64,000 nucleotides of DNA, taken from Euglena gracilis. Its lineage: Eukaryota. Both the position numbers and the translations under genes were made by a program. Below, piece by piece: positions 641-51,335 of this stretch. The stretch is taken from positions 14,681,667-14,745,666 of the forward strand of contig CP154954.1 of assembly GCA_039621445.1 (NCBI GenBank), in the 5' to 3' direction. Each line of letters begins with the position of its first letter. Within the stretch, counting starts at the first letter, position 1. The notes under the pieces are model-generated. The model did not search any database. It worked only from the letters and a program-made list of their open reading frames with translations, and was not told where the DNA came from.

Positions 641-2871
641 TGATAAATGAACCCCCCCGGGGGGGGTCCAGTTAAGAGGCAGGAAAATTTGGGCTGGGCT
701 GGAAAAAAGCTGCTGGCTGACGGTCCCAGGCTGGAGCTGAGCCTGGACAACTTTTTCCCGACCCATTTTCGCCGACTTCCGTACATCTAAAAGCCAAAAT
801 CTGTTAACGTTTCATTGATGAGGAGAAGGGGGTCCGGGGCTGGAAAAAGGCTGCAGGGAAAAGGCTGCTGGCTGGCTGGACCCTTCGGGGGGTCAAAATT
901 CAAGACCCTTCGGGGGGTCAAAAAAGCAACGTCCTGAACTGAATTATAATGAAAAACAACTACAAATGAATTGAAAATTGTCATATTACCAGAAACAGAA
1001 TTCGAAAAATGAAAAGCCAGAATACACAAATCAAAAAACTGCTTTTGAAGCAACAACAATGCTCCCCTCAACTCCTCCGCGAGCAGCCCCCCCCCCGTCC
1101 GAGCTATTTCCACAATGGGAAGGGAATAGCTCACTGTTATAGCACTTTCATGAAGAAAATCTTAAAACAGTGCTCAAAATTGACCTTTTTTGGAAGGTTT
1201 CAAACATCACTTTTTGGCAAATGTGCTTGGTATTGACCATTTTTTTTGCGAAAATCCAAAAAAAGTTGCCAAAAATAACACCTTTTTGGGCTTTCCCGCA
1301 TCGGGGATGGGGAACATCAACACAACAAAGACATTTATTTTTCAAAATTGTTTCTTCAAAAAAAAGCAATCAATAAACACCAAAAATGCCGCAACAAAAG
1401 AACACGTGACGCAGATTTGAAAAATGATATTGTCGGTTTGCCCAATTGCATTCTTATGCAATTACTGCTGATGGAATTGGTCTAAAAAAACGCGTGCCCC
1501 CAAAAAAGTCGAAAATATGCATTTTTTTAAAAATTATTACGATTTTGGATTCTGCAAAAAAAATGTAAACCATCGCAGTGTAAAAATTTGCACTCCCCCT
1601 TGGTGGGGGTTGGGGTTGCCCAAAATTTCTGACGCTCTGTAAACGGCAGACGATGCGGAAAACCGCTTCCAAAAACAGTTTTTGAAGTTTCTTTAAGAGG
1701 TCCCGATTTCGTCCAATCTCAGTGGATATTTGGCTTGCAGTACCAAAGTCCTATAAAGTCGAAAATACACTCGAAATGACCCATTTTTTTCAAATTGTAT
1801 GAAAATGAACGAAATCGGTAGGGAAAATTCAAAAAAAAAAGGAAATTGTAGATTCACACCTGGTTTCTGCTGTCATCGGCGTGGAAAGAATGCAAAGCCC
1901 ATGCAAGGAGGGGAAAACAGAAAAAAATAGAAAGAAAAGAAGCAAAAACATAGAAGAATAGAAGAAACAGGAAGCGGTAAATATCGCATTCCGCTTTCAA
2001 AAATTGGAGATGTGCAACAGAAAGTGAACACAAGCAATAATATTTGATGTAATCTGGACAAAACATATACATATTTTTCGCAAAACAAAAAGGAAGCGGA
2101 AAACCACTTTCAAAAACATCAGAAAATGTATAGTGTAAAATGGAATATTGATGTACGACTGCAACCAAGCAATATTACATTCAGAAGGAAATGCTGAACA
2201 GTTATAAAAGTAACAGAAACGAGACAAATTCAGCAGTAATTGTATGCATTATCGGAAGGACATAATTGACATACAAGGCTTAAGACAGTCTAAGTGGAAT
2301 GCAAAGCAATACAACACAGAACAATACAGAGCTTCTGCTCCTCTGTCCTCGATCGAAGTGGACGGTTATTTGGAGGTGACGAGGAAATGGTTGTGAAAAA
2401 CACAAGTTAAAGAAGCGGTTTTCCGTTTCCTCAACCCAACAGAATGTTTTTTGGCCAGAAAAAAGTGACAAATTGTGTACATCAGAAGAACCATTGACCA
2501 TCTGAATGGGAAATTACATTACAATCACTGAAATTTGAAACAGCCCAGAGAAGTAAAACTGTGTCATAACAACATTCAACAGTCAGTCTTTACGCATCCT
2601 AAAGCAGAACCCAAAAACAGAGTATTTATTTATGTTCTTGTCTAGGCACTCAGGTGAATATCCGACCATGCCCCCCAGGCACCCTCGATGTCCGTAGCCA
2701 TGCCAAAGAGACACAGAAACAAAACGATCGACACGAGTGTGCTTGGGGTGCGGGTACGTGTGTGATGTTGTCTGGTGTCTGGGATCCGGGGTTCTGGGGT
2801 CACAGTGCGATGACGTTTGTCCCACGCCGGCGGCACCCGCCGCCTGCTGCCACCGCAGCCGCCTTGGCCAC

Positions 2872-3522
2872 TCAGTCCTCGTCAACCATCATCTCCTGGA
2901 TGTTCTCCAGGGCGGACCGCTTCCGCGACACCAGAGAGGCGGTGCAAGCTGGTAACAGAGTAACATCAGACTGAAACCGGAGTTTTGCAGAAAAACCTTT
3001 CGTCGTCCTCATTCTGTAAAGGAAACAAGCAAGGAAAATGTCCAAACAGCATTCAGTCCTGAATGAAAGACATTTTTAAAATAGGTGTAATTTGCAATTT
3101 GGTAACAAAGCGGAAACACATTTCCTCAATAATAAAAAGTAATTATATGAATAATTATTGAATAAAGATGAAAGGCATATATGAATGACTCAATGAACAT
3201 TGTCAAGAACTTTTGCACCACTCCTTGTGCGCCACACGCTCTGGCGGCTCCAGGGACGACTCGGAGTGTCGGGCTGGCTGCGAGGAGGCGGACCCCCGAG
3301 CGCCCTTTTTGAATGTGTCTTTGACCTTTTTGTGCGGCTTGTCTTTGGACTCTTTCTCCTTGGGCTTTTCCTGTGATTCTTTAGTCTCCTTGGATTTGGA
3401 CTCCTTTGCCCCCCCGGCCACCCTGCTTGGGTGGGGGCTCCTCCTCCGTGGGTGATGCCGGGGTCGCCTCCGTCCCCTCTGGAATGAATCCGGAGATGTT
3501 CAGCCAGAGTGGTCCGCAAAAA

Positions 3523-3583
<61 letters not shown>

Positions 3584-4868
3584 CAACAAACAAATTAAAT
3601 ATGCCAAACATTTGAAAAGAAAAAAGTATCAAGTGTAAGTTGTATAGCGGATTTGCATTTCTCAGTTAAAAAGAATCTACTGCTGCACCCACTCCGTCAC
3701 CGGGAGCATGGCCTTCACCCAGGTCTCCTGAGAGGATGAAAACAACCACATCAGAATGAAATTGAAGCGGGGAAACATTTCAAATTATATTCTTGTCTAT
3801 CAACGCATTACCATAATGGACATTATTTTTGTCCATTTAGACATGTTTCTCATCCTCTGCAGGTATTATGATGCCAACACCAAGCACACCAGGACGCTAT
3901 CCACCGTCTCCCAACAGCCCGTCTTCTTGTAAACGGTCTTCAACAGCTCCGTCTTCATCGAGTTGTAGGGCACCCCATGTACTTCAGCGGCCTCCCGGTT
4001 GTAGGTGTCCTCCTTTAGGAGCCAGTGCAGGCGGTCTGCCAGCGTCATGTCCATCACATTCCCGTCCATGTCCTGCAGCCTGCCGGCCAGCTGCTGGCAC
4101 TCCTGTGTGGGTGTTCTCCTTCACCACTTTGCACTGGAACCTCTCCGTGAAGGCCGGGGGCGCATCGGCGATCGCGGCGTCGGCGATGGCTGCCGCGGCC
4201 AGGAAACGATGTTGTCCACTCAGTATGACCCACTTCCCGGCAGCTGTGCAAAGGATGCCACAGAGAAATTTGCATTCACCCACCTTTACGCAAGCAGTGT
4301 ATAAAAACAGGGGGGAAAATGAAGAAATATAAAAGTAATCCGAATCAGTTCTGCATATAATTTGGAGTGAGTGGAAATATCACCTCGGGAAAGCAGACAA
4401 AAACACAGGGAGGTAGGGTGGGCTCCTCTCTCCGGCCACCCAGTGAGCATCAGCTCCTGCGGGAGATTGTTCTTCAGCTCGGTGATGACGTCGTTGACGT
4501 GCTCCTGGCAAGGCCGACGGACCTGCCCCCTGCTCAGGTCATGGTCCACAACCAGTTGCCCGGCTGCAGGGTTACGTCAGTTCTTTCTGGATGAAAATAT
4601 CCATTTTCCAAGTTGATGAAGCGTGCTTCCGTTTCGTTTTGAATCACAAATTATTTTTTTGCCTTGCATCGCAACAATAACTGAAACTTAAAGTTGACAA
4701 CCATGACAATTCAATTGAGCTTCGCATTTCTTTTGTTCAGCAGAAGTGCAGCAACCAATGTAATTTTGTTCCCTCTGCAGCCACATCTCCTCGTCCTCCA
4801 GCAGCTTCGGAACTGACTGTCCCTAGACGTCTCCCTTTGACAACTTCATTGGAGGAATGCGTATTTGT
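2872..4868 (-). pseudogene. Spliced ParB/Sulfiredoxin-fold (GQHR) protein gene with K/E-rich C-terminus; frameshifts and a stop
   Basis: Exon ~4420-4563 reads DHDLSRGQVRRPCQEHVNDVITELKNNLPQELML. Exon from 4243 reads GKWVILSGQHRFLAAAAI (motif 4194-4220, GxxRxxA), then ...QQLAGRLQDMDGNVMDMTLADRLHWLL. Further exon-like blocks at ~3682-3728 (ETWVKAMLPVTEWVQ), ~3220-3510 (KESKSKETKE...) and 2872-2948. Most are preceded by pyrimidine-rich CAG acceptors. Confidence 0.75.
3526..3576. repeat. (CA)n microsatellite
   Basis: Direct reading. Confidence 0.97.
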
Positions 4869-5329
4869 CTGCGGGGACAAACAGAGGACAAATATGGACA
4901 AATATGGATATAATCAACCAATCTCTATGAAATCAAGCTGAAATGAACATAATTTTTTCATTTATTTCGAAAAGGTGTTCTAAAATGCAGCCAAGTAGCT
5001 TTTCCCCCCCACATTTCCAGAGTTGTTTTCACACACACCCTACTTTTAAGTCATTTCCGAAACGCAGCCAAATAGCCTTTTTCCCCTACATTTCCAGTGT
5101 TGTTTTCACACACACCCTATTTTTAAGTCATTTCCCGTACCAAACAGCACCGTCAGTAAAAAAAAAGAGGAATTTTTCTCACCGTGTTTCCTGCCAAGAC
5201 TCAGTAGGTTCTTTTCGGCCTCTGCATTGGGTAGAAGTACGTCATCGTGTGAACCCAGCTTGACCCAAAAGTTGTAGCACGACAGACCACCTCCAAAAGT
5301 CACTGCACCAAGATGCCAGTGACACACCA

Positions 5330-7750
5330 CTGCTACTCTCCGGGTGGACCGTACAGGGACTCCGGCGGCTCGTATATGCTGCTACCCTCCTCCATCTCCC
5401 CCAGTGAGGCTAAAGACTCTGCCACCTCTCCAGCGTCGTTGTCACCGAAGTGGTTCTCCGCTTCCTACATGTCATGCAAGATATTTCCGCTTCATCAGTG
5501 GAGGCAGTGGTGGAATTTCTCCTGCTTCAGCCGTGCTTCTTCTGTGTGCCAAGAAGGTGGAGATGGCCTCTTGTCTTTCCTGCAGAAATTCACACAACCA
5601 ACGTTGTTCTTGAGCCACTCCTCCACGTCCGATGCGAGGCACTGCCCTCGGATGAGGGTCTGCAAAGAATGCCGCAGGACAGGCAGCAGCTGCTCAGTGG
5701 TCATACGTGTTGGAAGAGGTTCGGGTGCCATCCAGGTGGAGAAGTTCTCTGGGTCCAGCAGCCACTGCACGGTGGTGCTGTCCCTCTTTGGAAATGGACG
5801 TTCTCCGGGGCTTCCAACCAAGCCACGCACACGACGTGCCATCTCCTGTACCAACTGCCGCCAAAGGCTACCATGGCTGTGATGAGCCTCTTCGGAGGGG
5901 GCACCAAGGTTCAGGAACAGCTGTAGCGTAACGTCGAAGCTGGTCACGCGCGGGTTCCGCTGGCAGAGGACAGCCTCGACAGCATGACCTCGCAGCCGGG
6001 CAGCCGAGCAGCCGTCACATCCAGTCTTGCCAGACCAGCAGGGCGAGGGAGATGGTCCGCCGGTATTCCGAGGGCGGCCTTCCGGGAGTCATCAGTCGTT
6101 CCAGGTGCATCAGCAGCAGGAGGCATTTCTGCAGCACCAGACGAGTGGTGGTGCCCTTCACCTCGTCCTCCGGTCTCCCCCTCCAGGTACACTGTCGCAC
6201 CTCGTGGCCCAGGTGCAGCAACGCTGGAGAACACCAGGATATTCCACAGCCTCTGCAACAGCTGGTACGGATGCAACCGGAGCATCTCCTGTTGTACAGC
6301 TCGCGTAGTCCCTGAGATTGTCAAGTCCGTCATTTGTGTAGTCAATTGTCAACTGAATTGCAGAAAATTTGTTATTCACATTCACAATTCACCGCCTAAC
6401 AATCAAAGCAAGCGGAAGTCCACTTCACTGCGATTTTGTGCCACTCAGATCGGGGCATGACACACTCGCAAGACAACAGAAGGCTGGCAAACAGCTTCTC
6501 CATGTACAGCACTTTCTAATGGCTCCGCAGACTGCACGTCAGGTGGTGATCACCGGGGGACACTTCCAGGTGGGCCAGGACCGGGAAGAACGCCCGGTAC
6601 ACGATGGCCACCATGTGCTTGTACGCGTGCCAGATACCGCACAGCAGGCCAGATAGCGGGACATGTAGTACCGTGATGCCGATGCGGAGTACAGCAGCTG
6701 CAGGCACTGGTTGTGGATGTTCTCATCCACCACGGAGTCTGGCGCCGAGTCAGGTGCTGCAGGGATTTGGCCGTCTGCAGCACAAGCAGGAGGTCCAGGT
6801 TGGCTGACACCACCTGCTCGGTCAGTGACAGTGGACGCCACTGTCACCGACATGCAGGGACCGCATGTCGGTCCGCCGACATCCAGCGGCACCCTGATCG
6901 TCTTCTCCGTCCGCTGCATCCATCGGATTGACCCACGGCCTGGTGCAGCAGCGGCAACGCAGTACAGCAGGAGGAGGCCACAACTTCCAGGTTGCCGGTG
7001 AGCTCGCTCAGTTCTGGATGTCCTGGAGACACCGGGAAGCTCACGGAACGTGTCCTCATTCCCTGGCACAGCAACACGTTCTCCAGCTGCGGAAATCATC
7101 CCCAGTGAGTAGTACATGTGTTACCTGCCAGGCAATCATTTAGCACCTCAGACCCAAAGATTACCATCAAATTATCATTTGTCGGCAATCCGCTTCATAC
7201 TGCCAAATAGCAAAAATAAATCTTGTTTCTGTATTGCTAAACGTGATATGAAACTCATTTAAATATGGTGATTGTTCATACCCAACCTGTGATTGTATAA
7301 AGTACCCTGCACTGATCCGAAAGCCGTGAGGTTCTGGCTCAGGTTCGGCATCGTTGGGCCTGTTCCCCACCAGCAGCCAGCAGAAGTTGTCCAGCCAGAG
7401 GATGATTTGGTGGTTCCACAGGGAGGATGTTCCGCACATCCGCCGCTGCCCGGGCTGCCACCGGCTCCTCCGTGCGACCCACAATACCGGTGTGTCGCAG
7501 TGTTCCCTGCGTTCCTCTCGGAAGCAGCTGCAGCGTCCGCATGCTGGGAGTGTTCTGCGTCATCGTACTGGGGTCCGCGAAGGGCTGCGCCTGGCGATGC
7601 AACGTACACCACACAGTGTACGTCCCAGTGGCCAACCACCGAGGATGGCGAGACACGACCGCAGGAAGACCTCCCGCACCGCGTCCACTGTGTGAACGCC
7701 GTGAATGGTGTGAACGCCGATTCAGCACCATGCAGCACAGTGCCACTATG
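5330..7750 (-). pseudogene. Spliced DDE transposase, Academ/DUF6589-like; multiple frameshifts
   Basis: Motifs in order on the minus strand: IILWLDNF (D at 7389-7391), SQNLTAF, IRVPLDV, VVDENIH (6713-6733), GIWHAYKH (6615-6638), EYRRTISLALLVWQDW (from 6068), CEVMLSRL (5971-5994). This parallels the DN..D / D / GxxH / Y.R / E order I recall for Academ-type transposases. Not database-verified. Confidence 0.7.
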
Positions 7751-8309
7751 GCTTGGGCCCCTGCCCCTGTGTCACGTCATGAAACAGGTCCCATCCGGAA
7801 CCTGGCTGACCACAATGTAAATAAGCTCGAAGGTCCCGAATGTTCAGGACCAGTTCCACGGACAAAAAAGTGAACACATTATGGCCAAGGAAGAGGATCA
7901 CCGCTTCCTTATTGTAATTTGCAAACCTGGAACTCTAGAGACATAAAAAAAAGTTTATCTGTTTATGTATGAAGCAGTTTTACGCTTCATTTGAATGCTA
8001 CTGGTGGTTTTTTAGGTGCTGTTTGGCAAGTGTACCTTGATTTCAGAAACAACAGGTGCAACATGGCATTGGTTTTTTTAATTGGCTCATCCGGAGCACG
8101 ATGCAAGGTAAAATCCTTCCCAAAACACAAGTACCCGGGAATTTACCATGAATTGGTGTGGATGGTGGAACAGCCGCCGAAACGTTCAGTAAAATCTTTG
8201 CGAGACAGAAGCGTAGGGTTGGTTTCGGTAATTTTTGTTTGTTTTTTTCTGCAAGCGGAAAAACGCTTCCCTGAAACTCGCATTTCGAAGTAATACGCGT
8301 ATTTTGTAT

Positions 8310-9750
8310 TTTGTTCCAACCGCGCGTGGTCGCTGTCGTTACTCCAACCTGCATGACCGCCTGCGTGACCACAGTCACCACCTCCCCTGCGGCTGCTGAC
8401 GTGATCACTGTTACTACCTGTATCTTGATCTCAGTGTATACGTGCTGTGCCAACTTCCCTGTGATGAGTGACAGGGACACCAGGAAAACTGCTTTTGGTA
8501 TATACTGGTGCTGTAAAAAATGCGCACAAGCCATCTTGATGATCCCGACTGCCTGCGTGATCACAGTCATTACCCTCATATACGGCTTCATATCGAAGCG
8601 GATTCCCACTGCCTGTGAAAGCAAAAAGTAGACCCGCATTGGTGTGGCACAGCAGACATTGTGTGGAAGGGGTGGGCAGTCCCCGCCGCACAGGGTCCGT
8701 GCCCACAGCCAGTCCGGTCCGCTGAGGCCATGCCTGTAAACTGAATGTGTGTTGTTTGGGCAGTTTAGTATTTTGTGGTCACAGCGCTTGGTATGAACAA
8801 TCAAAATCGCGTTTCAAGTTGTAGGTGAATCAGTTTTCCGCTTCATTTTTTCGATTTATAAAACAAATGTACAAGTAAAAATAAAGTGATGGTAAAAGCT
8901 CCTCGAAGTTCACGGTTGCGGAGGATTTCTCATGGACTCGATGAATTCTGTATGGAATGCTTAGAAACATACACAATTTGCTGTGGACTGATTTCGCTTG
9001 TGGCCCACCGCGCGTATTTACTCAACTATGCACCTGGAGAAGAACAATGTGACCATGATGTTTTGACAGTGCTTGATACTGGTAAACAATTGTGTACTTT
9101 GTGAGTAACATTTCAATATAATTGTTCGCCAGTTACAGAGGAAGCGGAAAAACACCTCTTGTTCAGTTTACTGCTGTGTTTTGTGTTGATCCGGAAAGGG
9201 ATTGGATTGAAATGTTGTTAACCGTTCAACGATTGATTGAAACAGAAAGTGCACTCAGCATTCTTCAGCACGTATTGTAGTTTGTGAATCCAGAACAACG
9301 GGGAGCCTGGACTGTACGCCTGCCCGGTCCAGCGAAAGCCGTAACCGAACCCCTGGCGACCATGCACCGTTCAGGGGTATGGGGAAGTGAAATGGACCCG
9401 GTCCAGCCTGTCCCCTTTTTTGTTTGCAATTCAGCGTCATTTGGCACCACATTTGTGTTTCTTACTGTTTCATTACGCAGAAAACCGCTTCCTCAGCCGT
9501 ATATGACCTATTTTTCATCGACCTACGAATGTGTCTCGCACACCAATCAACCGCTAAACTGCTGAGTGCACCGTCAACCCCGAAGGTGAGTGACCGGTGC
9601 ATTTCAGGTACAAGATGATTTTGTCTACGGTAGTGCAAGGCGGGGAGCCACGGGGCTGCCGGGTGCCTGCTTCCGCCGCATGCGGCTCTGGCAGCCAACA
9701 GGTATACCCGACACCGACGGTGGCCAACGTCGGTGTCAGCGAGAGTTAAT
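8310..9750 (-). pseudogene. Possible 5' exons of the transposase gene or another cargo gene
   Basis: GC-rich blocks between AT-rich spacers, some after CAG acceptors: ~8635-8733 (TQCLLCHTN), ~9290-9410 and ~9600-9750. No family motif recognised. Confidence 0.3.
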
Positions 9751-10243
9751 GACAAAGGATGAACGTGGTCTCTCCTCTTTTTCAATTTGCAATGATGTGT
9801 TTCTCTTAATGTTGGTGCTGTTCTGTTTTCAGCAATATCATGTGTTGCAGTATCCGTGAAGCGGTATTCCGCTTCGTTGCTTCGTTGTGGTTTATGCTTT
9901 ATTTTGCCATTATATTTGTTGGTAAGTAGTGTACATAGCAAAACTAGTTAAAGCCACTTAGTACCTATCTATCTGTTTCTAAGGTGTTTATTGGGGATGT
10001 TTGTATGCTTACAGACATATTTGCTACTATCTTTTAGTGTTACGTATTTCTTTCTGATTTTACATTAAAATATATTTTAAAATTCATTGAAGCGTTTTTC
10101 CGCTTCATCGACTCCATCGTCGTATACGTGTAAAAACTTTCTTCGTCCAGTGCAATTTAAAAAATTTGACCGTTTTTGAGAACAATTTTACCGGTTTCTG
10201 GAATGCAGTCAAAATTTTCATGGGCAATTTACACCGCTTCAAA

Positions 10244-11328
10244 TTGAGGTGAAAACCCCAAAAACAACCATTTTTGGCCATTTTGGACCCTTTTCATCAA
10301 TTTTTTTTTCACGTTACAGGCCGGTTTTCATTGGCCTGCTGAGGTTTTATTGCCACTCACCCCCCTGGGGGGCGTCCACTATCCGACTGGCAGGTGTTTG
10401 CTGGAAAAACAGTTCTCCCAAGGGGGTAGGGGTCCACCTTAAGAAATTCCGGGCGTAGATTTACGACGCGGCTGAATTAATCAAAAAAGTCATTAAATTG
10501 AATTATCGAACATTCAAAATATTGTGTGCCTAAAAAAGTAGAGAGCATGGCGCATTCTCATTCTCTGACAAATTCCCAGAGCTCTGATGGCCAAAAAATG
10601 AACGAGAATGTCACAAGCATCATTGTGTGGTTTTGAAGCATGATTGTTTTGTGTTGGCACACCCTGCTTAATTATTTGCTGGCTGGATTCAGAATGAACA
10701 ATGGAACTATCAGGAGCCATGTAAGGGACCACATGCACAGTAGTCTAGGGCTGCTGAAGCTCTTGCAATCCCATCACCGCCAGTTGGCCGTCCAAGTCGG
10801 CAGAACTTTTGCAGAAAGTTGGTGCGGTGTATTTAGGTGCATTTAATGACATTTGAACTCCAAGCTTCCAAGCCAAAACACCCTTGTTGGGTTTTATACC
10901 AATTTTATAAATATTTCATAATTATCATATTCCCGGGCTCTGGGTTTCTAGATTCTAGGTCCAATCCATCTGAAATCCAATTTTCCCCTGTTTTCTTTTT
11001 ATCTTTTATGCCAAACAGGGCTCCTGGTTTCAAAGTGCCAAGCTGTTTTGGTTGACCCAGTGCGATTGAACCCAATGTGTGTGATTGAGCATGCAACTTT
11101 TTAATACACCACCGTTGTGTGACGAAAAAAATTGCCTTCCCCCCTTTTTTGGTGGTTCTAGTAACGCGTCTCGGTCTTGGTTTCTTTCTGTATTTTTTTT
11201 TGTAGAATTTCGCCAGGCAAAAAATTCATTACAGCAAAGTGCGAAACGTTCGATGAGTCATCCCCACTTTATTGTTCCGAAAAAGCAAGGGCTCTTCAAG
11301 TGTGCGTGTGTATGTGAGTATGAGTGTG

Positions 11329-11359
<31 letters not shown>

Positions 11360-12960
11360 ATGGTGTATGTACAAGCATAAATAGTTTGGGCGTCCAAAGT
11401 CGGGGGACAGAGAGCGCATCATTTGGGAGGTTCATTATTTGATCAGAAAAAATCATATTGAAAATAATGATATCCGCACTTTTTGATATTCATTTCATTT
11501 TTTTTCGATATTTCCCATATTTGTTGGTCCAGTATATTTTTCCAAAATATGTTTGTTCTTTTATGTGTCTTTTTTTTGAAGAAGAAGATTGATGTTTCCC
11601 CCTGGCCAGGGTCCATTATTTGCGGATATTTGGAAGGGGCGTGCATGGTGGTGATGAATGGTGAAGTTCAAAATTATTATTATGTGGCAGGGTGAAGTTT
11701 GTGCCCCCCAAGGTGGTCTCAGGTATACAGAAGGATAGTGTTACGGTTGCAATTTTCCGGTCTAAGATTTCTTTGTATATTTCTGGACAGCAGTATTTTA
11801 TGAAAGCTGTGTATGAATTGCACAGAATGTTTATTCTCGAAAGGGGCAGGGGATTGGTTAGGAACAGGTTTAGGGTTCCCCCCCGTTGGCGTTCTTCCCT
11901 CGTAGATTTGCTCGATGTCAGACTGGTTGAGTTCTTGCCAACAGTGTCGGGACAATCAGAATTCATAACAGTAATGGCAATTGTCTTGTGTCAGAAGCAG
12001 GCGGCTATTCCAGACATTGGGAGCAGAATGACCCTGGATTTGCCTTGCACACCCCACTCCCTCCAGCCCAACCAGCTCGGACAGCAGTGTTGGGACCTCC
12101 GGTCCCTTCGGCTGGAGCCCTCCGCTCACCCTGGCGGTGACCGTGCCACCCATGCCTCCACGGTGGTCGTGCCGCTCCATCGATTGCCACCGAATCCGCC
12201 TTATCATGAAAACCACACAACTGCAAATACTGGAATTGTTGAAGAAAATGAAGGGATCCTTAATTTGAGAAACAGAAAGGAGATGGAAAATTACTGGTTT
12301 TATCTTACGCTTCCGGGAGCATACTGTAATGTGCAGTGTGCAGAGGTATTATATTAAAATTTTTATAATAAAATTTTCATATCAATTAATTATTTACAAT
12401 ATTGTTTGTGATAGCATATACCAATCGTTGGAGGAGCGAATTTGTCAGGCAAGGACCGTTTTCAGTAAAGGTCAAGGTAAACCTTGCCTTCTTTGCTTGC
12501 GCACTGATAAGTTTTTTCCAGCTTTTTTGAATATTTTTTCAGGCTCTCAATCATGTCTCAGGCTTTTTTACGACAGTGCAATTGTGTGTGCCAAACAAAT
12601 GTTATTGCCGAATTGTATGCCACGCCACAGATAGCCCCCCCCCCCCCTTCTGGAGAAGCCCCCCCATTTCACAGCAGAACCCTCTGACGAGGGCTGCCCC
12701 ACTGAATTACAAAAAAAACCAGGTTTGTTTCTGCAGCAATGATGTCCTGAATTGTACAGTGTCACCTGGGAATCTATCCCCCCCCTCTATATCTCTCTCT
12801 GTGTGTGTGCCTGCGCGCATCAATATTTCTTTCTTTTGTTGGAATTTCCAAAGTTATCTTTAGGCAGCCCTGAATTAAAGATGTTATTTCTTTGCTGCCC
12901 CGAAACGCCTTTTCGATCTCTTTGTGTCACGTTGCTCAATTTCTTTTCATATTTAATGGT
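10244..12960 (+). repeat. Long repeat X, copy 1 (internal fragment; empty TC site at ~12770-12800)
   Basis: Colinear with 17693-19622, and with 50008-50163, 53346-56280 and 59420-59580. Shared blocks include GGGCTGCTGAAGCTCTT.CAATCCCATCACCGCCA and GACGAGGGCTGCCCCACTGAAT. Confidence 0.92.
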
Positions 12961-14940: not shown

Positions 14941-17900
14941 GCAACAACCACCACCGGCCCGCTTCCAACAGCTTGTGGTGCCAGAAGGAGGAATTTTTGG
15001 ATATCCTTATTGCGTAGATGCGCATTTTCCAAATAACCAATATCTGCGCATCCACGCCTTCCTTTCTAATCTCTAACAAATACACCCTCGTTTTCTGCCC
15101 TCGTCCTCACACACACACCGTAGGCCCCATCCCATTCAAAACATCCATCACATCCATACCACCCCAATTATTTTCTCCAACCGCAATTCTGCTGCCCCGG
15201 CGGGGTGAAGGTGGGTGGGCGGCGTCAACTGGAGGTCACCGCACAATCTAGGGTAGGGTTTTGGGGATCGGTCAGGCAGGCACCCCTGTCCGGTGACCGA
15301 TTCTGTTTTCTTTACCCTTTTTGCAAAGACCAACCCGACCCTGGGTACCCTGGCTACCCCCTCGGGTGGTGTGCCTGCTATCTGCAGGCACCTTATAGCA
15401 CCCATCCCCCACTCCCCCCCTGTTGGTAAAAAAAAAGTCACAAGCCTCACAAACATTTCAAGGTTCAAAGCACTTTTATAGTTTATGGCCAACCGCGTGC
15501 CACCATCCAAGGTATGCCTCCATCCCGGCACCCATCATTCCAGTCGGTGCCTGCTAGCTGAGAAACAATGAAGAGAATCTTGTGATCCCTGCACCACTGT
15601 GGCCTGCAATGAATTTGTCCGCGTCATCAAAGGTTGTTCAGTTTTGGGTTTAACGGAATGTTGTTTTTGACACATTATTGGTTTTCTGTTGGGTTTGTTA
15701 ATTTGGCAGCCCATTTCCGGCATAATTTGAACCTGCTCGCTCACTCATTTGTTGCTGTCTAGTTGTTTTTCCATGGCCAAAGAGTATTTAAAAAGTCTAT
15801 CATTCGATAGGAGGGAGTTTTGTTTTATCATATTTGATTGACACAAATACAATGGGGAATTTAATTTCGTCTCAAACTTGCACGGCATTTGCAACGTTCC
15901 ATCCGCCCCCTTCCCCATTTTTGCCCAGGCAAGCCTTGCTCCCAACAAAATGCTCTCCTCTCTGTCGCTGCCCTGCGGTGCCAATGTGCGGGTTGAGTGG
16001 ACGGGCTCCAGAGCGGCTCGGACGGCGTGCAGGCGATTACCGTGCTTTTCCGAAGGCAGGGGTGGTATTAACCTTCCCTGGATGGGTATGCTTTTTATGG
16101 TTGCATTGGATTGCATACAATTTGTAAATATAGGACAAAATAGTAAGCAGTGTCGTCGACCATGTTTTTGTATGGATCTGCTGCACAGCATCGTGAATTG
16201 CTTCCACCAGAGAGTGATTTGCAGAAACAAATTCAGATGCTCCGGCCAACAATCAGCAATTTTTTTTTCATTTCTCGTCTTTTTTCCCCCTGGAAATTTC
16301 ATTCCTGAAGTTTGGGGGTTGTGGTCGTTGGGTTTTAGAGGCACCGTTGTTGCTATTTGGAGGTACCGTTGGCCGAGTCGGCCCTCCCGGGGCCAACCAG
16401 GGCCGATTTTGCCGATACCCGTAGGGCTGGTGGGGATGCTGCCACACCACGCCCACCTCGTGCGGCACCGCATGCTCCGCATGGCGCACCGTGTGCACCG
16501 TGTGGGCTCATTTCCAACATTCCTCGAATTTATATTACATTTTGGCCACCTTTGGCCGCTTTTAACGTTTTTGTTTGTTTAATCTTCGGCTATTTGTTGC
16601 CAGTTTTTGGCTTTTTGCCTTATTTGGTGTCGTTTCCCATTTGAAGCATTCTTGATGTCATTGTCGGTCATTTCATGGCCACTGTTTTGCAATTTTAACA
16701 GTATTTCGATTTTGAACCTTTTTTAGCCATTTTTTTGCCTAATGCAGTGGTTGCAGATATGGTGGCACAGAGTGCCGCACGTGGTGCACTTGCGGCACCA
16801 TGAGGTGCACGTGGTGCCACAAAATATGTGATGCACGTGTTGCGGAAGGGTCCCCAGTGCCAAATATGAATTTTGTTGGCTGATTTATGGGGAGTGAGTG
16901 TGAAGATTTTATCCCCTCTTCCTTTGTTCCCTACGCTTTTGGTGCAAACAGTCTCCCTCTCCTCATTCTTTGATTTCTGTCTTGTTTGTACTGCAAGTGA
17001 ATTTTGTGAAGGGAATGAGCGACAGCTGCGGTTCGAAACATAATTAAGTATTATTGAGGGGTCCAGCCAGCACCCTTTTTACAACCAGCACCTGCACCCC
17101 CGAATGGGCTGCAAAGCGTCCCTTTTGTCTGGAGGTTTGGTTGTTCCTTGATTGAGATGGTACATTTTGCATGTGATTTGTAAACCATCAAGACAGTGAC
17201 GGTTGAAAACATCTTTTGGTGGTGATAAAGTGTTAATAGAGTGGGAACACAAGAACACCATCTGGAATGGCATGTGATTGCTCAGATGAAGGATGGCTCC
17301 CAAAACGGTTAAATTGGTTTCAATTTCAAACAGCCAAAATTACTGGAAAGTTGCTGGAAAAAATGGCTCACCCTGGCAAAATGGCAAAATGACAAAATGG
17401 GGAGGCTAAAACTGGACCACGGGGGATAAATTGGCTATTCGAGGGAAGAAGACAATGTAGCTTCGTAATTGAATGAAATGTGTCTTCCTTCCTTCAAATC
17501 TTTTTTTCCAGAAATTCTCTGCATTAAAGTACTGCAGTTGGCTTTGCCGTTATAGAAGCTGGGAAAAAGTGCTGGCTGGACCCCCCCCCCTAGAGGGGTC
17601 CTATTCAGCTGCTGAGCTGGACCCGGCTGGCACCCGAAAGCTGGCAAAAAGGCCCAAATCTACCTGTCTTGGATTTTTTCCCAGCCAACTTATTGAGGTG
17701 GAAACCTAAAAAACGACCAACAATGGATTTTGGCCATTTTTGGCCATTTTGGACCTCTGTTAATCAATTTTTTTTTCGGTTCAGGCCGGTTTCACTGCCC
17801 TGTGAAGATTTCATTGACACTCACCCTCACCACTCCCACTTACTCTTAGGGGGGAGCGTCGGCCATTCGAATGGCAGGTGTTCGCTGGAAAAAATGGTGC

Positions 17901-19557
17901 TGGTTCAAACCCCCGGCAGGGGTGGAGGCAGGGGGGGGGTCCCTGGAATGGGTTGGAATGGGGGCACAGGTTTATGATGTGGCTGAAGACATCACAAAGT
18001 CAAGTAATTGAATTCATCGGATATTCAAAATATTGTGTGACAAAAAGAGTAAAAAGCATGGCACATTATGTGACAAAAAATCCCAGCCCTGGCGACGTAA
18101 AATGTATGACATTGTCACAAGTATCATTGTGTGGTTTTGAATCATAATTATTTTGTATTGGCACACCTCCTGAATGTCCGGCCAATTACGTGACGGCTGG
18201 CAAATTCGGAATGAACCATGGAGCTGTTAAGAGCCGTGTAAGGGACCATATTTGCACAGTGGCCTGGGGCTGCTGAAGCTCTTGCAATCCCATCACCGCC
18301 AGTTGGCCATCCAAGTCGGCATGTCCCGCTGCAAGGTTCTCCTGTAATGTAAAAGAGTGGTTATGAGTTTTTTTCTCGTTGTGTGTGTGTGTGTGTGTGT
18401 GTGCGTGTGCTTGAGTGCGTGTGTCTGTTTATAAGCGTAAATAATTTGTGCAGCCAAAGTCGGGGGACAGGGCGCTGTAAGTTGGGTAAGCTGTAGTTTT
18501 CTGCGTGTAATTTTAGACAGCAACATTTTATGTAAGCTATGTATGAATTGCACCGAATGTTTATTACCACATTGGTACCACATTGGGCAGATAATTGGAT
18601 AGGTTCCGATTTAGGGTTCCCCCATTGGCATTATTCCTTCCTAAATTCGCTAGATCTGAGATTGGGTGATTCTTGCCAACAATATCAGAACAATAAGAAT
18701 TCAGAACAATAATAAAAATTGGTGTGTGTGTGTATGTCAAAAGCAGGTTGATTTTCCAGTATGACCCTGTCCTTGCCTTGAGCATCCCACCCCCTCCAGC
18801 CCAACCAGCTCGGACAGCAGTGTTGGGACCCACGGTCCATTCGGCAGGAGCCCTCCACTCACCCCAGCGGTGGCCGCACCACACATGCCTCCACGGTGGT
18901 CGTGTGGCTCTATTGATTGCCACCTATTTCGCCTTATCTTGAAAACCACACAACTGCCAATACTGGAATTCTTGTCCAGCTGAAGAGTGAAGAGCTGGAG
19001 GGATTCTGAATTTGAGAAATAGAAAGGCAATGTAAAAATAACCGGTTTTCTCCTGTGCTTGCGAGAGTAAACCGTAAAGTGCTTGTTTTTAGAGGATTTG
19101 AATGATTTTTTTTCTCATCAGGTAATACGTGTGGCATAACAATTGGTTATTTACAACATTGCTTGTGGCCGTATATACAAATCGTTTGAAAAGTGAAAAT
19201 GCCAGAAAAGGAACGTTTTCAGTAAAGGGAAGCCTTGACAAGGCTGGTAATTGATCTTGCATTTGGGGGGGGGGGTTGCGATATTTTGCGAGACATTGCA
19301 CGGCCTTGCAATATTGGCGATATTTTCAATTGTCTTCTTTTCTTGCATACTGTCATGTTTGTTTTTTCATCCAAATTTATTTTTTGAATATTTTTTTCAG
19401 GCTCTCAATCAGGTGTTAGGCTTTGTCACGACGGTGCAATTGTGTGTGCCAAACAGATGCGATTGCCGAACTGTATGACACGCCACAGATAGCCCCGCTT
19501 CTAGAGGAGCCTCCCCATTTCACAGCAAAACCCTCCGACGAGGGCTGCCCCACTGAA

Positions 19558-19622
19558 TCACAAGACAACCAGGTACGCTTCTGTGACAATCATGTCCCAA
19601 ATCGTACAGTGTCCCCTGGGAA

Positions 19623-19684
<62 letters not shown>

Positions 19685-20778
19685 CGTGGGTTTCCCTTGC
19701 CTTTCCCTTTCCCCCTCCCCCCTCCCTTGGCCTCCTGTCCCCCGGTGGCTGCCCGTCTGTCTGGCGCGCTGGGCTGCCCCTTCCCTTTCCCCCTCCCCCC
19801 TCCCCTGGCCTCCGGTCCTCCGGTGGCTGCCCGTCTGTCTGGCGCGCTGGGCTGCCCCTTCCCCCTCCCCCCTCCCTTGCCTGCTGGTGGGTGTGTGACG
19901 GTCCCCGTGCGTGCGTGCGTGCTGGGGGGGCGGCGCTCCCCCCGTGGGCTCCGCACGCCTTTCACGCCACCCCTGGACCCCGCACCAGGGCCCGGGGGCC
20001 CGGGGATGCCACCGCCGGCAAGCCCCCCACCCCCCAGGGCCCCGTCGGCGTGGTACACCTCGTTCTGGTACCCGCATGACGGGCACGGATGGCAGTCTCC
20101 GTGCCCGGCACGCGGGTTTCGGGGATCTCCGCGGCCGCGTCGTTCTTGGGCTCCGTCGCCTCGTCCACGGCCTCGTCCTCCGCGTCCTCCGCGTCCTCCT
20201 CGTTTCTCTGGTGGCGGCTGCCTGCTCGCTTGGCGGCTTGGGGGTTCACACCCAATGGATCTCTTCCGCCCCCGGCGTTGTTGCTGTGGCTGCAGGGGGC
20301 CCAGGGGTTTTCGTCCCTTAGGTCCGGTCGTTACTGCTGCTGCTGGCGGGGGCGGATTCTGCCGCCATTGGTCGAGCTCTTGCTGCATTTCTTGCAGCGC
20401 TCGTTGGAGCCCTTGGAGGCGCTTTTGGAGGCGTTTTTGGCCGGTGCTTTTGCTGTTTGCCAGCCCTCTCCTTGGGGTTGGCCCTGCCGCTTCCTTGTGG
20501 GGTGACGTTTCCTTTGCCACCCTTGCCTCCTTTCCTGGGCTGTGTCTGTCCTTTTCCTGTTTTTTGTCCTCCTCGCTGGGCCCCCCCTTTTGGGTTGGGC
20601 TGTTGGTACCCTCTTTGGGGTGGTCCGGGGTTTTTTTCTTTCTCTCTCTCTCTCTCTCTCTCTCTTCCGCACCCAGCAGTAAAGGAGCCAGGCGGTTTCG
20701 GATCCAGCCGGGCCTTCCTTGTCGATGCCCCCGACGCCCGGCTGGTGGGGGCAGACCGCCTGGTGACGGGGCACTCAT
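19558..20778 (-). CDS. Putative ORF1-like protein (406 aa) of the hammerhead-bearing element: coiled-coil, RGG box, CxxCxxC
   Basis: True ATG at 20776-20778. Contains QKRLQKRLQGLQRALQEMQQELDQW, RGGRGGRGGRGRGRG and CHPCPSCG. The duplicate at 22123-23378 is frameshifted, and GC-rich DNA gives long ORFs by chance. Confidence 0.4.
20688..20763 (-). ncRNA. Type III hammerhead ribozyme, U3:A8 core variant (copy 1)
   Basis: Minus strand: CCAGGCGGU-C-UGCCCCC-accagccgggcguc-GGGGGCA-UCGACAA-GGA-aggcccggcugga-UCC-GAA-ACCGCCUGG. This gives stem III 9 bp, GUC cleavage triplet, stem I 7 bp, core, stem II and GAAA. Confidence 0.85.
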
Positions 20779-21579
20779 GCTCCGCGGGTGGGCGCGTCAT
20801 GGACCCCAAGGGTATGCGGACCCTCAGGGCCACCCACGGCTCCATCCAGGCAGGCGAGATATAGCCCCGTGGGCACCCACCTGGAGAGCGGCTCCGCGTG
20901 TTGCATGGCCCTCGGGTGCTGCCGTCACCCGAGGAACGGCCCAGGAACTCCGGTTGCCAGGAGCGGGGACCCCGGGGGCCACTCGCCCCCCTCCTTGGCG
21001 TGAAGGTGGTCACCACTCTGGGATACTCTGGTCCACGGCCGGCGCCGATTGGGGTCCTGGCACCCCGTCAGCCCGCCTCCTTCACCCAGAGATGGGCCAG
21101 CCTTCCCGGAGCTACAGCCCGCATAGAGCCACTTGCTTCGACCCCAAGCAAGGTGTGGGGAGCCCGACCTGCGACTCACCAGGAGGGTCACGGGCTTCAC
21201 CCACACGTGGCTCTTTCCTCTGTGCCGACTTGCACTGGAGGCTGTGCGGGCGGGACTTTGCGCTCGAGTCCTTGCAGGCCGAGAAGCACCACCTCGGTTG
21301 CTGCGTGGGGTGGCCTAGCTGATGTTTGTAAACCGCGTCAGCTGGCGGGAGCCCATATTCTTTTCGCCGTGGGCGGTGGCGGCGTCGGCTCACCCCGGAC
21401 TCCGAGCCCCTAGCCGTCTTGGGCTGTGTGGGGAAGCGCTTCAGTCCCATGCGCCTGGCCTCGAAGGGCTCGCAAGCGCTAGTTGCCCGGAAGGAAGGCC
21501 GGGACTTTTGTTCCACCCGTTGTGGGGTGGCCGCGGTTTCCCGCGTGTCTCTCTCTTTCCGCACACAGCGGTAAAAGAG

Positions 21580-21655
21580 CCAGGCGGTTTCGGATCCAGC
21601 CGGGCCTTCCTTGTCGATGCCCCCGACGCCCGGCTGGTGGGGGCAGACCGCCTGG
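21580..21655 (-). ncRNA. Type III hammerhead ribozyme (copy 2)
   Basis: Same 76-nt sequence, 892 nt from copy 1. Confidence 0.85.
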
Positions 21656-22225
21656 TGACGGGGCACTCATGCTCCGCGGGTGGGCGCGTCATGGACCCCA
21701 AAGGGTATGCCGACCCTCAGGGCCACCCACGGCTCCATCCAGGCAGGCGAGATATAGCCCCGTGGGCACCCACCTGGAGAGCGGCTCCGCGTGTTGCATG
21801 GCCCTCGGGTGCTGCCGTCACCCGAGGAACGGCCCAGGAACTCCGGTTGCCAGGAGCGGGGACCCCGGGGGCCACTCGCCCCACTCCTTGGCGTGAAGGT
21901 GGTCACCACTCTGGGATACTCTGGTCCACGGCCGGCGCCGATTGGGGTCCTGGCACCCCGTCAGTTTTTTCATCCAAATTTATTTTTTGAATATTTTTTT
22001 CAGGCTCTCAATCAGGTGTTAGGCTTTCTCACGACGGTGCAATTGTGTGTGCCAAACAGATGCGATTGCCGAACTGTATGACACGCCACAGATAGCCCCG
22101 CTTCTAGAGGAGCCTCCCCATTTCACAGCAAAACCCTCCGACGAGGGCTGCCCCACTGAATCACAAGACAACCAGGTACGCTTCTGTGACAATCATGTCC
22201 CAAATCGTACAGTGTCCCCTGGGAA

Positions 22226-22285
<60 letters not shown>

Positions 22286-23287
22286 CGTAGGTTTCCCTTG
22301 CCTTTCCCTTTCCCCCTCCCCCCTCCCTTGGCCTCCTGTCCCCCGGTGGCTGCCCGTCTGTCTGGCGCGCTGGGCTGCCCCTTCCCTTTCCCCCTCCCCC
22401 CTCCCTTGGCCTCCGGTCCTCCGGTGGCTGCCCGTCTGTCTGGCGCGCTGGGCTGCCCCTTCCCCCTCCCCCCTCCCTTGCCTGCTGGTGGGTGTGTGAC
22501 GGTCCCCGTGCGTGCGTGCGTGCTGGGGGGGCGGCGCTCCCCCCGTGGGCTCCGCACGCCTTTCACGCCACCCCCGGACCCCGCACCAGGGCCCGGGGGC
22601 CCGGGGATGCCACCGCCGGCAAGCCCCCCACCCCCCAGGGCCCCGTCGGCGTGGTACACCTCGTTCTGGTACCCGCATGACGGGCACGGATGGCAGTCTC
22701 CGTGCCCGGCACGCGGGTTTCGGGGATCTCCGCGGCCGCGTCGTTCTTGGGCTCCGTCGCCTCGTCCACGGCCTCGTCCTCCGCGTCCTCCGCGTCCTCC
22801 TCGTTTCTCTGGTGGCGGCTGCCTGCTCGCTTGGCGGCTTGGGGGTTCAAACCCAATGGATCTCTTCCGCCCCCGGCGTTGTTGCTGTGGCTGCAGGGGG
22901 GCCCAGGGGTTGTCGTCCCTTAGGTCCGGTCGTTACTGCTGCTGCTGCGGGGGCGGATTCTGCCGCCATTGGTCGAGCTCTTGCTGCATTTCTTGCAGCG
23001 CTCGTTGGAGCCCTTGGAGGCGCTTTTGGAGGCGTTTTTGGCCGGTGCTTTGTGCTGTTTGCCAGCCCTCTCCTTGGGGTTGGCCCTGCCTGCTTCCTTG
23101 TGGGGTGACGTTTCCTTTGCCACCCTTGCCTCCTTTCCTGGGCTGTGTCTGTCCTTTTCCTGTTTGTTGTCCTCCTCGCTGGGCCCCCCCTTTTGGGTTG
23201 GGCTGTTGGTACCCTCTTTGGGGTGGTCCGGGGTTTTTTGCTTTCTCTCTCTCTCTCTCTCTCTTTCCGCACACAGCAGTAAAGGAG

Positions 23288-23363
23288 CCAGGCGGTTTCG
23301 GATCCAGCCGGGCCTTCCTTGTCGATGCCCCCGACGCCCGGCTGGTGGGGGCAGACCGCCTGG
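23288..23363 (-). ncRNA. Type III hammerhead ribozyme (copy 3)
   Basis: Same 76-nt sequence. Confidence 0.85.
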
Positions 23364-24181
23364 TGACGGGGCACTCATGCTCCGCGGGTGGGCGCGTCAT
23401 GGACCCCAAAGGGTATGCCGACCCTCAGGGCCACCCACGGCTCCATCCAGGCAGGCGAGATATAGCCCCGTGGGCACCCACCTGGAGAGCGGCTCCGCGT
23501 GTTGCATGGCCCTCGGGTGCTGCCGTCACCCGAGGAACGGCCCAGGAACTCCGGTTGCCAGGAGCGGGGACCCCGGGGGCCACTCGCCCCACTCCTTGGC
23601 GTGAAGGTGGTCACCACTCTGGGATACTCTGGTCCACGGCCGGCGCCGATTGGGGTCCTGGCACCCCGTCAGCCCGCCTCCTTCACCCCGAGATGGGCCA
23701 GCCTTCCCGGAGCTACAGCCCGCATAGAGCCACTTGCTTCGACCCCAAGCAAGGTGTGGGGAGCCCGACCTGCGACTCACCAGGAGGGTCACGGGCTTCA
23801 CCCACACGTGGCTCTTTCCTCTGTGCCGACTTGCACTGGAGGCTGTGCGGGCGGGACTTTGCGCTCGAGTCCTTGCAGGCCGAGAAGCCCCACCTCGGTT
23901 GCTGCGTGGGGTGGCCTAGCTGATGTTTGTAAACCGCGTCAGCTGGCGGGAGCCCATATTCTTTTCGCCGTGGGCGGTGGCGGCGTCGGCTCACCCCAGA
24001 CCCCTAGCCCCTAGCCGTCTTGGGCTGTGTGGAGAAGCGCTTCAGTCCCATGCGCCTGGCCTCGGAAGGCTCGCAAGCGCTAGGTGCCCGGAAGGAAGGC
24101 CGGGACTTTTGTTCCACCCGTTGTGGGGTGGCCGCGGTTTCCCGCGTGTCTCTCTCTTTTCCGCACACAGCGGTAAAGGAG

Positions 24182-24257
24182 CCAGGCGGTTTCGGATCCA
24201 GCCGGGCCTTCCTTGTCGATGCCCCCGACGCCCGGCTGGTGGGGGCAGACCGCCTGG
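24182..24257 (-). ncRNA. Type III hammerhead ribozyme (copy 4)
   Basis: Same 76-nt sequence, 894 nt from copy 3. Confidence 0.85.
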
Positions 24258-24776
24258 TGACGGGGCACTCATGCTCTGCGGGTGGGCGCGTCATGGACCC
24301 CAAAGGGTATGCCGACCCTCAGGGCCACCCACGGCTCCATCCAGGCAGGCGAGATATAGCCCCGTGGGCACCCACCTGGAGAGCGGCTCCGCGTGTTGCA
24401 TGGCCCTCGGGTGCTGCCGTCACCCGAGGAACGGCCCAGGAACTCCGGTTGCCAGGAGCGGGGACCCCGGGGGCCACTCGCCCCACTCCTTGGCGTGAAG
24501 GTGGTCACCACTCTGGGATACTCTGGTCCACGGCCGGCGCCGATTGGGGTCCTGGCACCCCGTCAGCCCGCCTCCTTCACCCCGAGATGGGCCAGCCTTC
24601 CCGGAGCTACAGCCCGCATAGAGCCACTTGCTTCGACCCCAAGCAAGGTGTGGGGAGCCCGACCTGCGACTCACCAGGAGGGTCACGGGCTTCACCCACA
24701 CGTGGCTCTTTCCTCTGTGCCGACTTGCACTGGAGGCTGTGCGGGCGGGACTTTGCGCTCGAGTCCTTGCAGGCCG

Positions 24777-24900
<124 letters not shown>

Positions 24901-49278: not shown

Positions 49279-49518
49279 GATGGTGCAATTTGCATGTGAT
49301 TTGATGGTCCAATTTGCATGTGATTTGATGGTCCAATTTGCATGTGGTTTGATGGTCCAATTTGCATGTGATTTGATGGTCCAATTTGCATGTGATTTGA
49401 TGGTCCAATTTGCATGTCATTTGATGGTCCAATTTGCATGTGATTTGATGGTCCAATTTGCATGTGATTTGATGGTCCAATTTGCATGTGATTTGATGGT
49501 GCAATTTGCATGTGATTT
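49279..49518. repeat. 24-bp minisatellite x10 (GATGGTCCAATTTGCATGTGATTT)
   Basis: Direct reading; the unit is single-copy in X copy 2 at ~17156-17179. Confidence 0.96.
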
Positions 49519-50163
49519 GTGAACCATGAAGGTAGGGCCGGAAGCCATTGTTGGTGGTAAAAGAGTGTTAATGGAGTGGGAACACAAGAGCTCCAAGATT
49601 GGAATTGCGTGTGATTGCTCAGACGGATCAAGTTGCGAAGGATAGTGAAGGAAAATAGTGAAATTGTTTTCAAATTGAAATGGATAAATTCCTTGAAAGT
49701 TGGAAAAAAATGGCTCACCGTGGCAAAACGGCAAAGTGACTAAAACTGGGCTTGGGGATGAATTGGCTGTTGAAGAGAAGAAAGCTTTCGAAGGCAATGT
49801 AGCTGCTTAATTGAATGAAATGCATCTTCTTTGCTTTAAATATTTTTTCCAGATATTCTCACATGAAAAGATTACAGTTGAGATTGCTGTTATTGAAGCT
49901 CCAGAGGGGTGGGTCCTAATCAGCTGTTGGATTGAACCGGCTTGGCACCCGAAAGCGGCAAAAAAATGCCCAAACCCACCTGCCTTGGGTTTTTTTTTCA
50001 GCCAGTTTATTGAGGTGAAAACCCCAAAAACTATCAAATTTTGGAAAATGGCCATTTTTGACCATTTTGGACCCCTTGTCATCAACCTTTTTTTCGGTCC
50101 AGGCTGGTTTCACTGTCCTGCTGAGATTTTATTGTCACTCACCGGCTGGCAGGTGTTAGTTGG

Positions 50164-51205: not shown

Positions 51206-51335
51206 CGTCCCAAACGCCGGTTTTACCACAAAAAGGGGGGGCGGACGCCGGTTCAGGACAGAACCAGCGTCCGACCCCCCCTTTGTTTAAAGCGGCGTTT
51301 TAGAGACGCCGGTTCAGGACAGAACCGGCGTCCCC
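51200..51335. repeat. Fold-back cluster: two GACGCCGGTTC-AGGACA-GAACCRGCGTC hairpins
   Basis: Copies at 51244-51271 and 51305-51332; they lie where the retrotransposon similarity ends. Confidence 0.8.

Follow-up and report, generated by a model that had tools for sequence, protein, structure and literature searches.

Fixed-spacing palindromes clustered in one decayed DNA transposon of Euglena gracilis: a possible array of protein recognition sites

A 64,000-nucleotide (nt) stretch of the Euglena gracilis genome (GenBank assembly GCA_039621445.1, contig CP154954.1, positions 14,681,667–14,745,666 of the forward strand; hereafter, the window) contains a silent, decayed minus-strand DNA transposon with a large broken transposase gene and a putative second gene. 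Non-coding parts of this element carry a dispersed array of 18-bp palindromes, GAAGCGG-N4-CCGCTTC, whose spacing is fixed and which are, within the window, restricted to the element. We tentatively interpret the palindromes as an array of recognition sites for an element-encoded, probably dimeric, sequence-specific DNA-binding protein. Judged from sequence features, this is a possible reading and the best supported of those considered here.

For counting, the element region was defined as positions 1600–10300 and the rest of the window as the other 53.7 kb. Searching for the motif with ≤3 mismatches recovered 17 matches across the window, 16 of them in 1652–10106, compared with a mean of 2.26 and a maximum of 5 in 100 window-wide dinucleotide shuffles. 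At ≤0, 1, 2, and 3 mismatches, the element region holds 1, 6, 13, and 16 copies, respectively, whereas 1000 shuffles of this region only gave means of 0, 0, 0.019, and 0.24 (maxima 0, 0, 1, and 2), and the remaining 53.7 kb gave 0, 0, 0, and 1. Motif density is thus far above the dinucleotide-shuffled background (16 vs. 0.24 in the region) against which the original prediction proposed to measure it. An unbiased word count of the region versus the rest of the window returned CCGCTTC, AAGCGG, ACCGCTTC, and their relatives as the top over-represented 6-, 7-, and 8-mers. When spacers of 0–15 nt were scanned, a spacer of 4 nt alone was enriched (16 matches inside the region vs. 1 outside), and all other spacers gave ≤5 matches inside the region, mostly re-finding the same sites. 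Beyond the 16 copies, the region contains a copy with a 13-nt spacer (1971), two 4-mismatch copies in AT-rich segments (3107 and 7179), and exact half-sites at 2917, 5487, and 10234, which makes the earlier estimate of about 20 copies a fair one. The four examples quoted there (2412, 8252, 9858, and 10089) are present exactly as written, and the spacer is, as described, nearly always 4 nt. It had also been stated that only half-sites occur in the other 54 kb. This is correct at ≤2 mismatches, and the exact half-sites outside the region (four GAAGCGG and six CCGCTTC) are at about chance level, but the single match with 3 mismatches departs from it.

When other dispersed palindrome families were sought in the window, only members of a tandem duplication were found. 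A GC-rich (~65%) tandem duplication is located at 19361–24780, with a 2.6-kb unit, 98.7% identity, and a further partial copy. Scanning metagenome contigs for the exact motif identified 119 loci with one site each, seven of which have a second match at ≤2 mismatches, and no clustered palindromes were present among these 119 loci. The metagenome sites look like chance or terminator-like sites in unrelated organisms.

Across the 16 copies, the consensus reads GAAGCGG TTTT CCGCTTC, with a mean column identity of 86%. With a 4-nt spacer, 11 bp separate the centres of the two half-sites, which by simple arithmetic is close to one turn of the helix. Both spacer types named in the original prediction occur (AAAA in 5/16 copies and TTTT in 4/16; other spacers in 7/16), and when the copies are oriented by the T-rich spacer, eight lie on each strand. 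The flanks are unrelated, as had been noted: their columns look random except for one conserved position, a T two bases beyond the second arm in 14/16 copies. Because the core is conserved at 86% while the flanks are unrelated, a constraint on sequence is indicated. Substitutions affect 28 of 224 arm positions (12.5%) and comprise nine CpG-type transitions, five other transitions, and 14 transversions. CpG decay as the main source of the variants was ruled out, given that CpG transitions make up 9/28 and transversions 14/28 of these changes.

The copies are spread over the whole element at a non-coding density of roughly one site per 250–350 bp. The 3′ flank of the genes holds three, at 1652–1669 (1 mismatch, AAAA spacer), 2093–2110 (2 mismatches, AAAA spacer), and 2412–2429 (1 mismatch, TTTT spacer), together with the 13-nt-spacer variant (1971–1997, one arm mismatch). 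AT-rich segments between exon blocks hold 3764–3781 (3 mismatches; segment ~3735–3870), 4618–4635 (2 mismatches; segment ~4577–4780), and 6409–6426 (2 mismatches; in the transposase-homology gap 6228–6470, a putative intron). Two further segments of this kind contain the weak 4-mismatch copies, 3107–3124 (AT-rich segment 2947–3200, the putative last intron of the second gene) and 7179–7196 (right arm exact; homology gap ~7086–7321, also a putative intron). The copy at 5447–5464 (1 mismatch) is located in the C-terminal tail of the transposase frame, which is not conserved, with an exact half-site beyond the copy at 5487–5493; both fall inside the stretch 4.7–6.4 kb that the original prediction had described as free of copies. 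About ten copies occupy the 5′ flank and leader (7890–10106), so that about 13/16 flank the genes. The first of them, at 7890–7907 (1 mismatch), is at or just upstream of the transposase frame start, and it is followed in the 5′ flank by 7971–7988 (2 mismatches, TTTT spacer), 8252–8269 (2 mismatches, AAAA spacer), 8595–8612 (2 mismatches), 8827–8844 (2 mismatches, TTTT spacer), 9141–9158 and 9474–9491 (each 3 mismatches, AAAA spacer), 9858–9875 (the sole perfect copy), and 10089–10106 (1 mismatch, TTTT spacer). Coding-like DNA makes up 36% of the span, yet only 2/16 copies lie there (P = 0.035), namely 7890, which is probably in the 5′ untranslated region, and 5447, in the non-conserved tail; the conserved transposase homology blocks contain none. 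The mostly non-coding placement first reported for the motif is therefore borne out (14/16 copies outside coding-like segments), with introns deduced from protein-homology gaps and AT-rich segments rather than from RNA.

The fixed spacing, the conservation of sequence rather than of pairing, the unrelated flanks, the restriction to one element, and the even coverage of its non-coding parts together suggest an array of sites for a dimeric protein. The same features favour the dimeric-protein dyad of the original prediction over its alternatives, at the level of what the DNA itself can suggest, although the 'ParB-like' name given there to the protein did not hold (see below). The binding, the binder, and the effect of binding we infer as follows. 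An active ancestor would have carried ~20 near-perfect 7-4-7 dyads, one per ~250–350 bp, in the 3′ flank, in the introns of both genes, and in the 2.3-kb 5′ flank. The candidate binder would be the product of the second gene or, as a second choice, the N-terminal part of the transposase. The bound protein would mark or coat the entire element and nothing else in the genome, and might serve to counter silencing, to regulate the element's own genes, or to bring parts of the element together for transposition.

The large gene of the element is a pseudogene (5345–7900, minus strand) of an unnamed DDE-type transposase family, with homology blocks at 7653–7322, 7085–6471, and 6227–5345. No intact transposase reading frame was found at 5345–7900, and a tblastn alignment of the 770-amino-acid (aa) homologue P0005 onto this region revealed, within the homology blocks, five or more changes of frame and three or more in-frame stops, showing that the window copy is a pseudogene. 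A full HMMER scan with the longest open frame (5495–6088) returned 22 proteins: one of 150 aa is 98% identical, and the full-length relatives (671–770 aa) share ~30–39% identity. A protein with 66% identity, P0002, represents a diverged sister lineage. An earlier homologue search with a 197-aa open reading frame at 'longer' lengths gave no match. Using P0005 as the query, a second search identified 59 proteins, all unnamed or 'hypothetical' and none with a Pfam domain; some of their clusters comprise 45–65 member sequences, and contigs of 0.3–2.3 Mb carry some of them. Pfam matched 0/10 relatives, no family was common to 33 relatives, and no relatives were found in JGI metagenome contigs or IMG/VR.

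The fold was examined in the homologue P0005 rather than in the broken window copy, using an AlphaFold model built from 33 sequences (predicted local distance difference test, pLDDT, 81.4). Foldseek returned the Hermes and P-element transposases as the best matches to this model (E = 2.5e-3). A second aligner, applied to residues 133–560, gave Z scores of 10.0 for the P element (root-mean-square deviation 5.3 Å over 288 residues), 9.8 for Hermes (5.5 Å over 275 residues), 8.0 for ISCth4, 7.5 for Transib, and 6.7 for RAG1. The P0005 model thus shares with the P element, Hermes, Transib, and RAG1 an RNase-H-like fold with a helical insertion, and differs from them in sequence (8–11% identity) and in matching no Pfam family. 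Five acidic residues (D164, D259, E387, E517, and E520) are invariant in the 33 sequences; they fit a DDE centre, in which some of them are presumably catalytic. The family (P0005, P0009, P0018, and P0029–P0084) also conserves the motifs W-x-D-N, P-L-D, V-D-E-N, and W-H-x-Y-K-H. The label 'transposase' given to this gene in the original prediction is therefore supported by the homologue family and by the predicted P-element/Hermes-like fold. A language-model search returned DUF6589 proteins of basidiomycetes in 29/30 matches, which we treat as a lead only; the literature consulted on DUF6589 contained a passing mention in one paper. The transposase family may represent a superfamily not yet described or a branch that has not been modelled.

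Two further features were seen within the transposase pseudogene. A 33-nt piece with three stop codons (5466–5498) lies between same-frame parts of the transposase tail; it contains a half-site and directly borders the copy at 5447. In addition, 127 bases (7489–7615) are absent from one contig of a run designated X19; this piece begins with GT and ends with AG on the plus strand, opposite to the coding strand, and its lack in X19 reflects either a deletion variant in another copy or an antisense intron.

The putative second (accessory) gene (2872–4870, minus strand) is located downstream of the transposase gene and consists of several GC-rich exon blocks in a gene model deduced from the DNA sequence. 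The piece near 4200 carries a GQHR-type motif; the others include an 84-aa block (3866–4120) with a possible helix-turn-helix, a Lys/Glu-rich block (3203–3499), and an acidic C-terminus that extends to 2872 after a good 3′ splice site; one frameshift is present near 4115–4120. The 84-aa exon weakly matched helix-turn-helix regions (TraR C-terminus, E = 0.011; sigma region 4, E = 0.12). The name 'ParB-like' had been attached to this protein on the strength of the GQHR-type motif, seen by eye. It went unconfirmed: single exons, across two of which a putative ParB domain would extend, gave no ParB match in Pfam, PHROGs, NCBIfam, PDB sequences, or phage tblastn (six weak matches, none ParB), nor did homologue searches supply one. 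The best score in a protein atlas was 0.78, which is uninformative, and no enzyme domain was recognisable. Between the two genes, a 77-nt unit is present in two tandem copies (4978–5131) that are 87% identical.

The limits of the element were examined against paralogous parts of the window. Three diverged segments (10243–12802, 15854–19647, and 47693–56280; 71–80% identity) occur in the same order, and the second and third lack the palindrome region. Nothing in two diverged paralogous segments corresponds to the interval ~1050–10240, and similarity returns at 10240–10243, directly after the exact half-site CCGCTTC (10234–10240), with a precision at this right junction that is limited by the 71–75% identity of the flanking alignment. 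A candidate end alignment was unconvincing, and comparison with the paralogous segments gave no position for the left junction. An assembly gap of 249 N (7–255) is located at the left edge of the window.

Three RNA-seq runs, of which 5–6% was read, yielded 5, 2, and 10 reads on 9.6 kb (1100–10700), with no readable splice junctions; the locus is essentially silent. Half or more of the sampled words were present in each of 18 sequencing runs, drawn from as many as 15 studies (15 being the number counted for all 20 runs listed as carriers, with no RNA run among those listed), and the element copy is therefore fixed rather than polymorphic. The present copy is dead: its genes are broken, its RNA is near-silent, and its sites are 12.5% off consensus. 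In run X19 (type guessed; thin contigs), 48 nt matched beside the perfect copy at 9858 and the sequence then diverged. The diverged contig keeps the dyad at 17/18 letters, spacer included, and the 11 bases preceding it differ. Since this contig diverges yet carries the dyad, at least one other diverged copy that retains the site exists. Nearby, a GC-rich island of the 5′ flank contains a perfect inverted repeat (9710–9737) whose 10-bp arms are separated by 8 nt, and the adjacent islands 9632–9679 and 9799–9846 are parts still common to the diverged X19 copies. The transposase 5′ flank also contains a 28-nt direct repeat in three copies (8355–8382, 8391–8418, and 8547–8574), with an inner inverted repeat of the GTGAC..GTCAC type, which may be a promoter element.

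Several points weigh against a recognition array for an element-encoded protein. The restriction of the sites and their positions come from one element copy. Avoidance of exons would also be expected from selection against any insertion into exons. The pattern of decay carries little information, because half of the arm substitutions are transversions. Terminal inverted repeats and a target duplication were sought and not found, and comparing one flank with the other returned the motif alone; decay of an old copy may have hidden these features. For the favoured binder, homologue searches at 'longer' lengths found none, and matches were lacking in Pfam, PHROGs, and PDB sequences, so that its DNA-binding nature is weakly indicated. 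The model of its 84-aa exon (pLDDT 76.9) gave generic helical matches, with Foldseek E values above 0.5 and VIA Z ≤5.7.

The strongest competing explanation, although an unlikely one, is that the palindromes are classical transposase-binding sites, i.e., subterminal repeats for assembly of the transposition complex that reach unusually far inward from both ends. Members of the P/hAT group bind subterminal repeats, and the large gene is P/hAT-like by fold. The concentration of about 13/16 copies in the two flanks (three in 1652–2429 and ~10 in 7890–10106) agrees with this view, as does the exact half-site ending at 10240, the point from which the paralogous segments again show similarity. However, the copies at 3764, 4618, and 6409, and the weaker ones at 3107 and 7179, lie deep inside, up to ~4 kb from either end. 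There is also no end-specific polarity, as each end shows both spacer and flank orientations (eight copies of each overall), and no terminal inverted repeats were found, with a boundary at 10240 that is only as precise as a 71–75% alignment.

Somewhat less probable is the idea that the copies have no function, being either a worn old internal repeat or a short unit spread by slippage or gene conversion and purged from exons. Some pairs of copies share additional flank bases (1652/2093, 88% over 26 nt; 7971/8827, 91% over 23 nt; 2073/9121, 77% over 35 nt), which hints at duplication of longer units, and because the element is dead, nothing maintains the sites today. Neutral decay of longer units should, however, affect core and flanks alike, in contrast to the conserved core and unrelated flanks described above, and neither the exact 4-nt spacing in 16/16 copies nor the dyad symmetry is explained by a neutral process.

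We consider it very unlikely that the palindromes act as hairpins, whether as RNA signals (for introns, processing, or termination) or, at replication or transposition, in single-stranded DNA. A 7-bp stem closed by a 4-nt loop is possible for the consensus, the perfect copy folds as single-stranded DNA at −8.3 kcal/mol, and 7/16 copies reach −4.5 kcal/mol or better. Moreover, a palindrome gives the same stem on either strand, so the mixed orientation is compatible with hairpins. Nevertheless, the remaining 9/16 copies show no appreciable folding, and the two arms vary independently: no cell is changed on both sides of a pair, and 83.0% of cells are paired compared with 84.3% in shuffles. This absence of compensatory changes across the 16 copies, together with the location of about 13/16 in the flanks, outside any plausible intron, argues against the RNA hairpin that the original prediction had offered as an alternative. 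Conservation thus concerns the sequence, beyond pairing, and Rfam gave no match at gathering thresholds.

The least likely proposals are that the palindromes are host transcription-factor sites recruited as enhancers, for which several copies offer a GGAA/GCGG-type core per half-site, or repeatedly inserted micro-MITEs (miniature inverted-repeat transposable elements), whose palindromic arms might imitate a pair of abutted element ends; against both stand the near-absence of copies from the other 53.7 kb and the isolated single sites of the metagenome scan, and against the latter the lack of convincing target-site duplications at the 16 copies (8/16 without any flank repeat, and 2/16 with repeats of ≥5 nt, both A-rich and of low complexity, compared with ≥5 nt in 34/2000 controls).

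Placed among known systems, a recognition array for an element-encoded protein would have several partial parallels. To our knowledge, how transposons recognise their own DNA has been worked out in detail for only a handful of elements, with VANDAL/VANC as the main case. In maize En/Spm (the TNPA sites, some of which are inverted pairs) and in the subterminal repeats of hAT and P elements, an element protein binds multiple short sites near both ends. Those sites lie within a few hundred bp of the ends, whereas the copies described here reach the introns of both genes. Among bacterial replicons, the KorB operators of plasmid RK2 and the ParB-parS system present many dyad sites over a replicon, bound by a dimeric helix-turn-helix protein of the ParB family. 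The resemblance lies in the many dyad-symmetric sites (~13–18 bp class) on one replicon, here 16 dyads of the 7-4-7 type; the difference is that the host here is a eukaryotic, intron-bearing transposon in which no ParB hidden Markov model match or partner ATPase gene was seen. A bolder proposal would be a plasmid-style partition or operator system in a eukaryotic cut-and-paste transposon, in which the element's own ParB/helix-turn-helix dimer coats the 9-kb element on ~20 parS-like dyads, which would occupy each intron and flank, and the transposase represents an unnamed superfamily. We regard this combination as improbable. If true, it would give the element a private address, useful for withstanding silencing or for retaining and segregating excised copies.

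The VANC21 motifs of VANDAL21, a Mutator-like element of Arabidopsis, are bound by an element-encoded protein that marks the whole element only (PMC5735166). The two cases are alike in having motifs in the introns and flanks of one element. The VANC motif is a 9-bp, non-palindromic sequence in tandem repeats, whereas here an 18-bp dyad with a fixed spacer is dispersed among unrelated flanks. VANDAL21 also belongs to another transposase family, and no VANC-like protein was found here.

Accessory proteins of the ParB type in algal transposons were first proposed in 2025. Red-algal Plavaka elements carry inverted-repeat arrays beside the ParB-like accessory gene PAG3 (bioRxiv 10.1101/2025.02.11.637652), Sola1-1_Ec32 of Ectocarpus has a ParB-like/methyltransferase accessory gene (PMC12477816), and the authors propose that the ParB-like protein binds its own transposon (bioRxiv 10.1101/2025.02.11.637652, PMC12477816). 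The shared features are a DDE transposon, an extra gene with a proposed DNA-binding role, and inverted-repeat units on the element. In the algal elements, the repeats are tandem and beside the gene, the protein has an oxygenase or methyltransferase domain, and the elements are 17–21 kb long. Here, the repeats are dispersed over ~8.6 kb, and the second gene has no recognisable enzyme domain and an unconfirmed ParB likeness. In the literature searched for palindromic or subterminal motifs, nothing closer was found than Muta1, which has a terminal palindrome and subterminal repeats inside its terminal inverted repeats.

If the motif were common genome-wide, the finding would be ordinary. If an element-encoded protein does bind the dyad, the pair would form a compact, sequence-specific tether for a whole locus, and self-marking through dispersed sites would have arisen in more than one transposon lineage. 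The element offers a clean and readily testable case, with one 18-bp dyad of fixed spacing in ~20 copies through all of its non-coding parts and a transposase family that is unnamed in domain libraries. It differs from the systems above in its dispersed rather than tandem dyads, in an accessory gene that lacks an enzyme domain, and in this unnamed transposase family.

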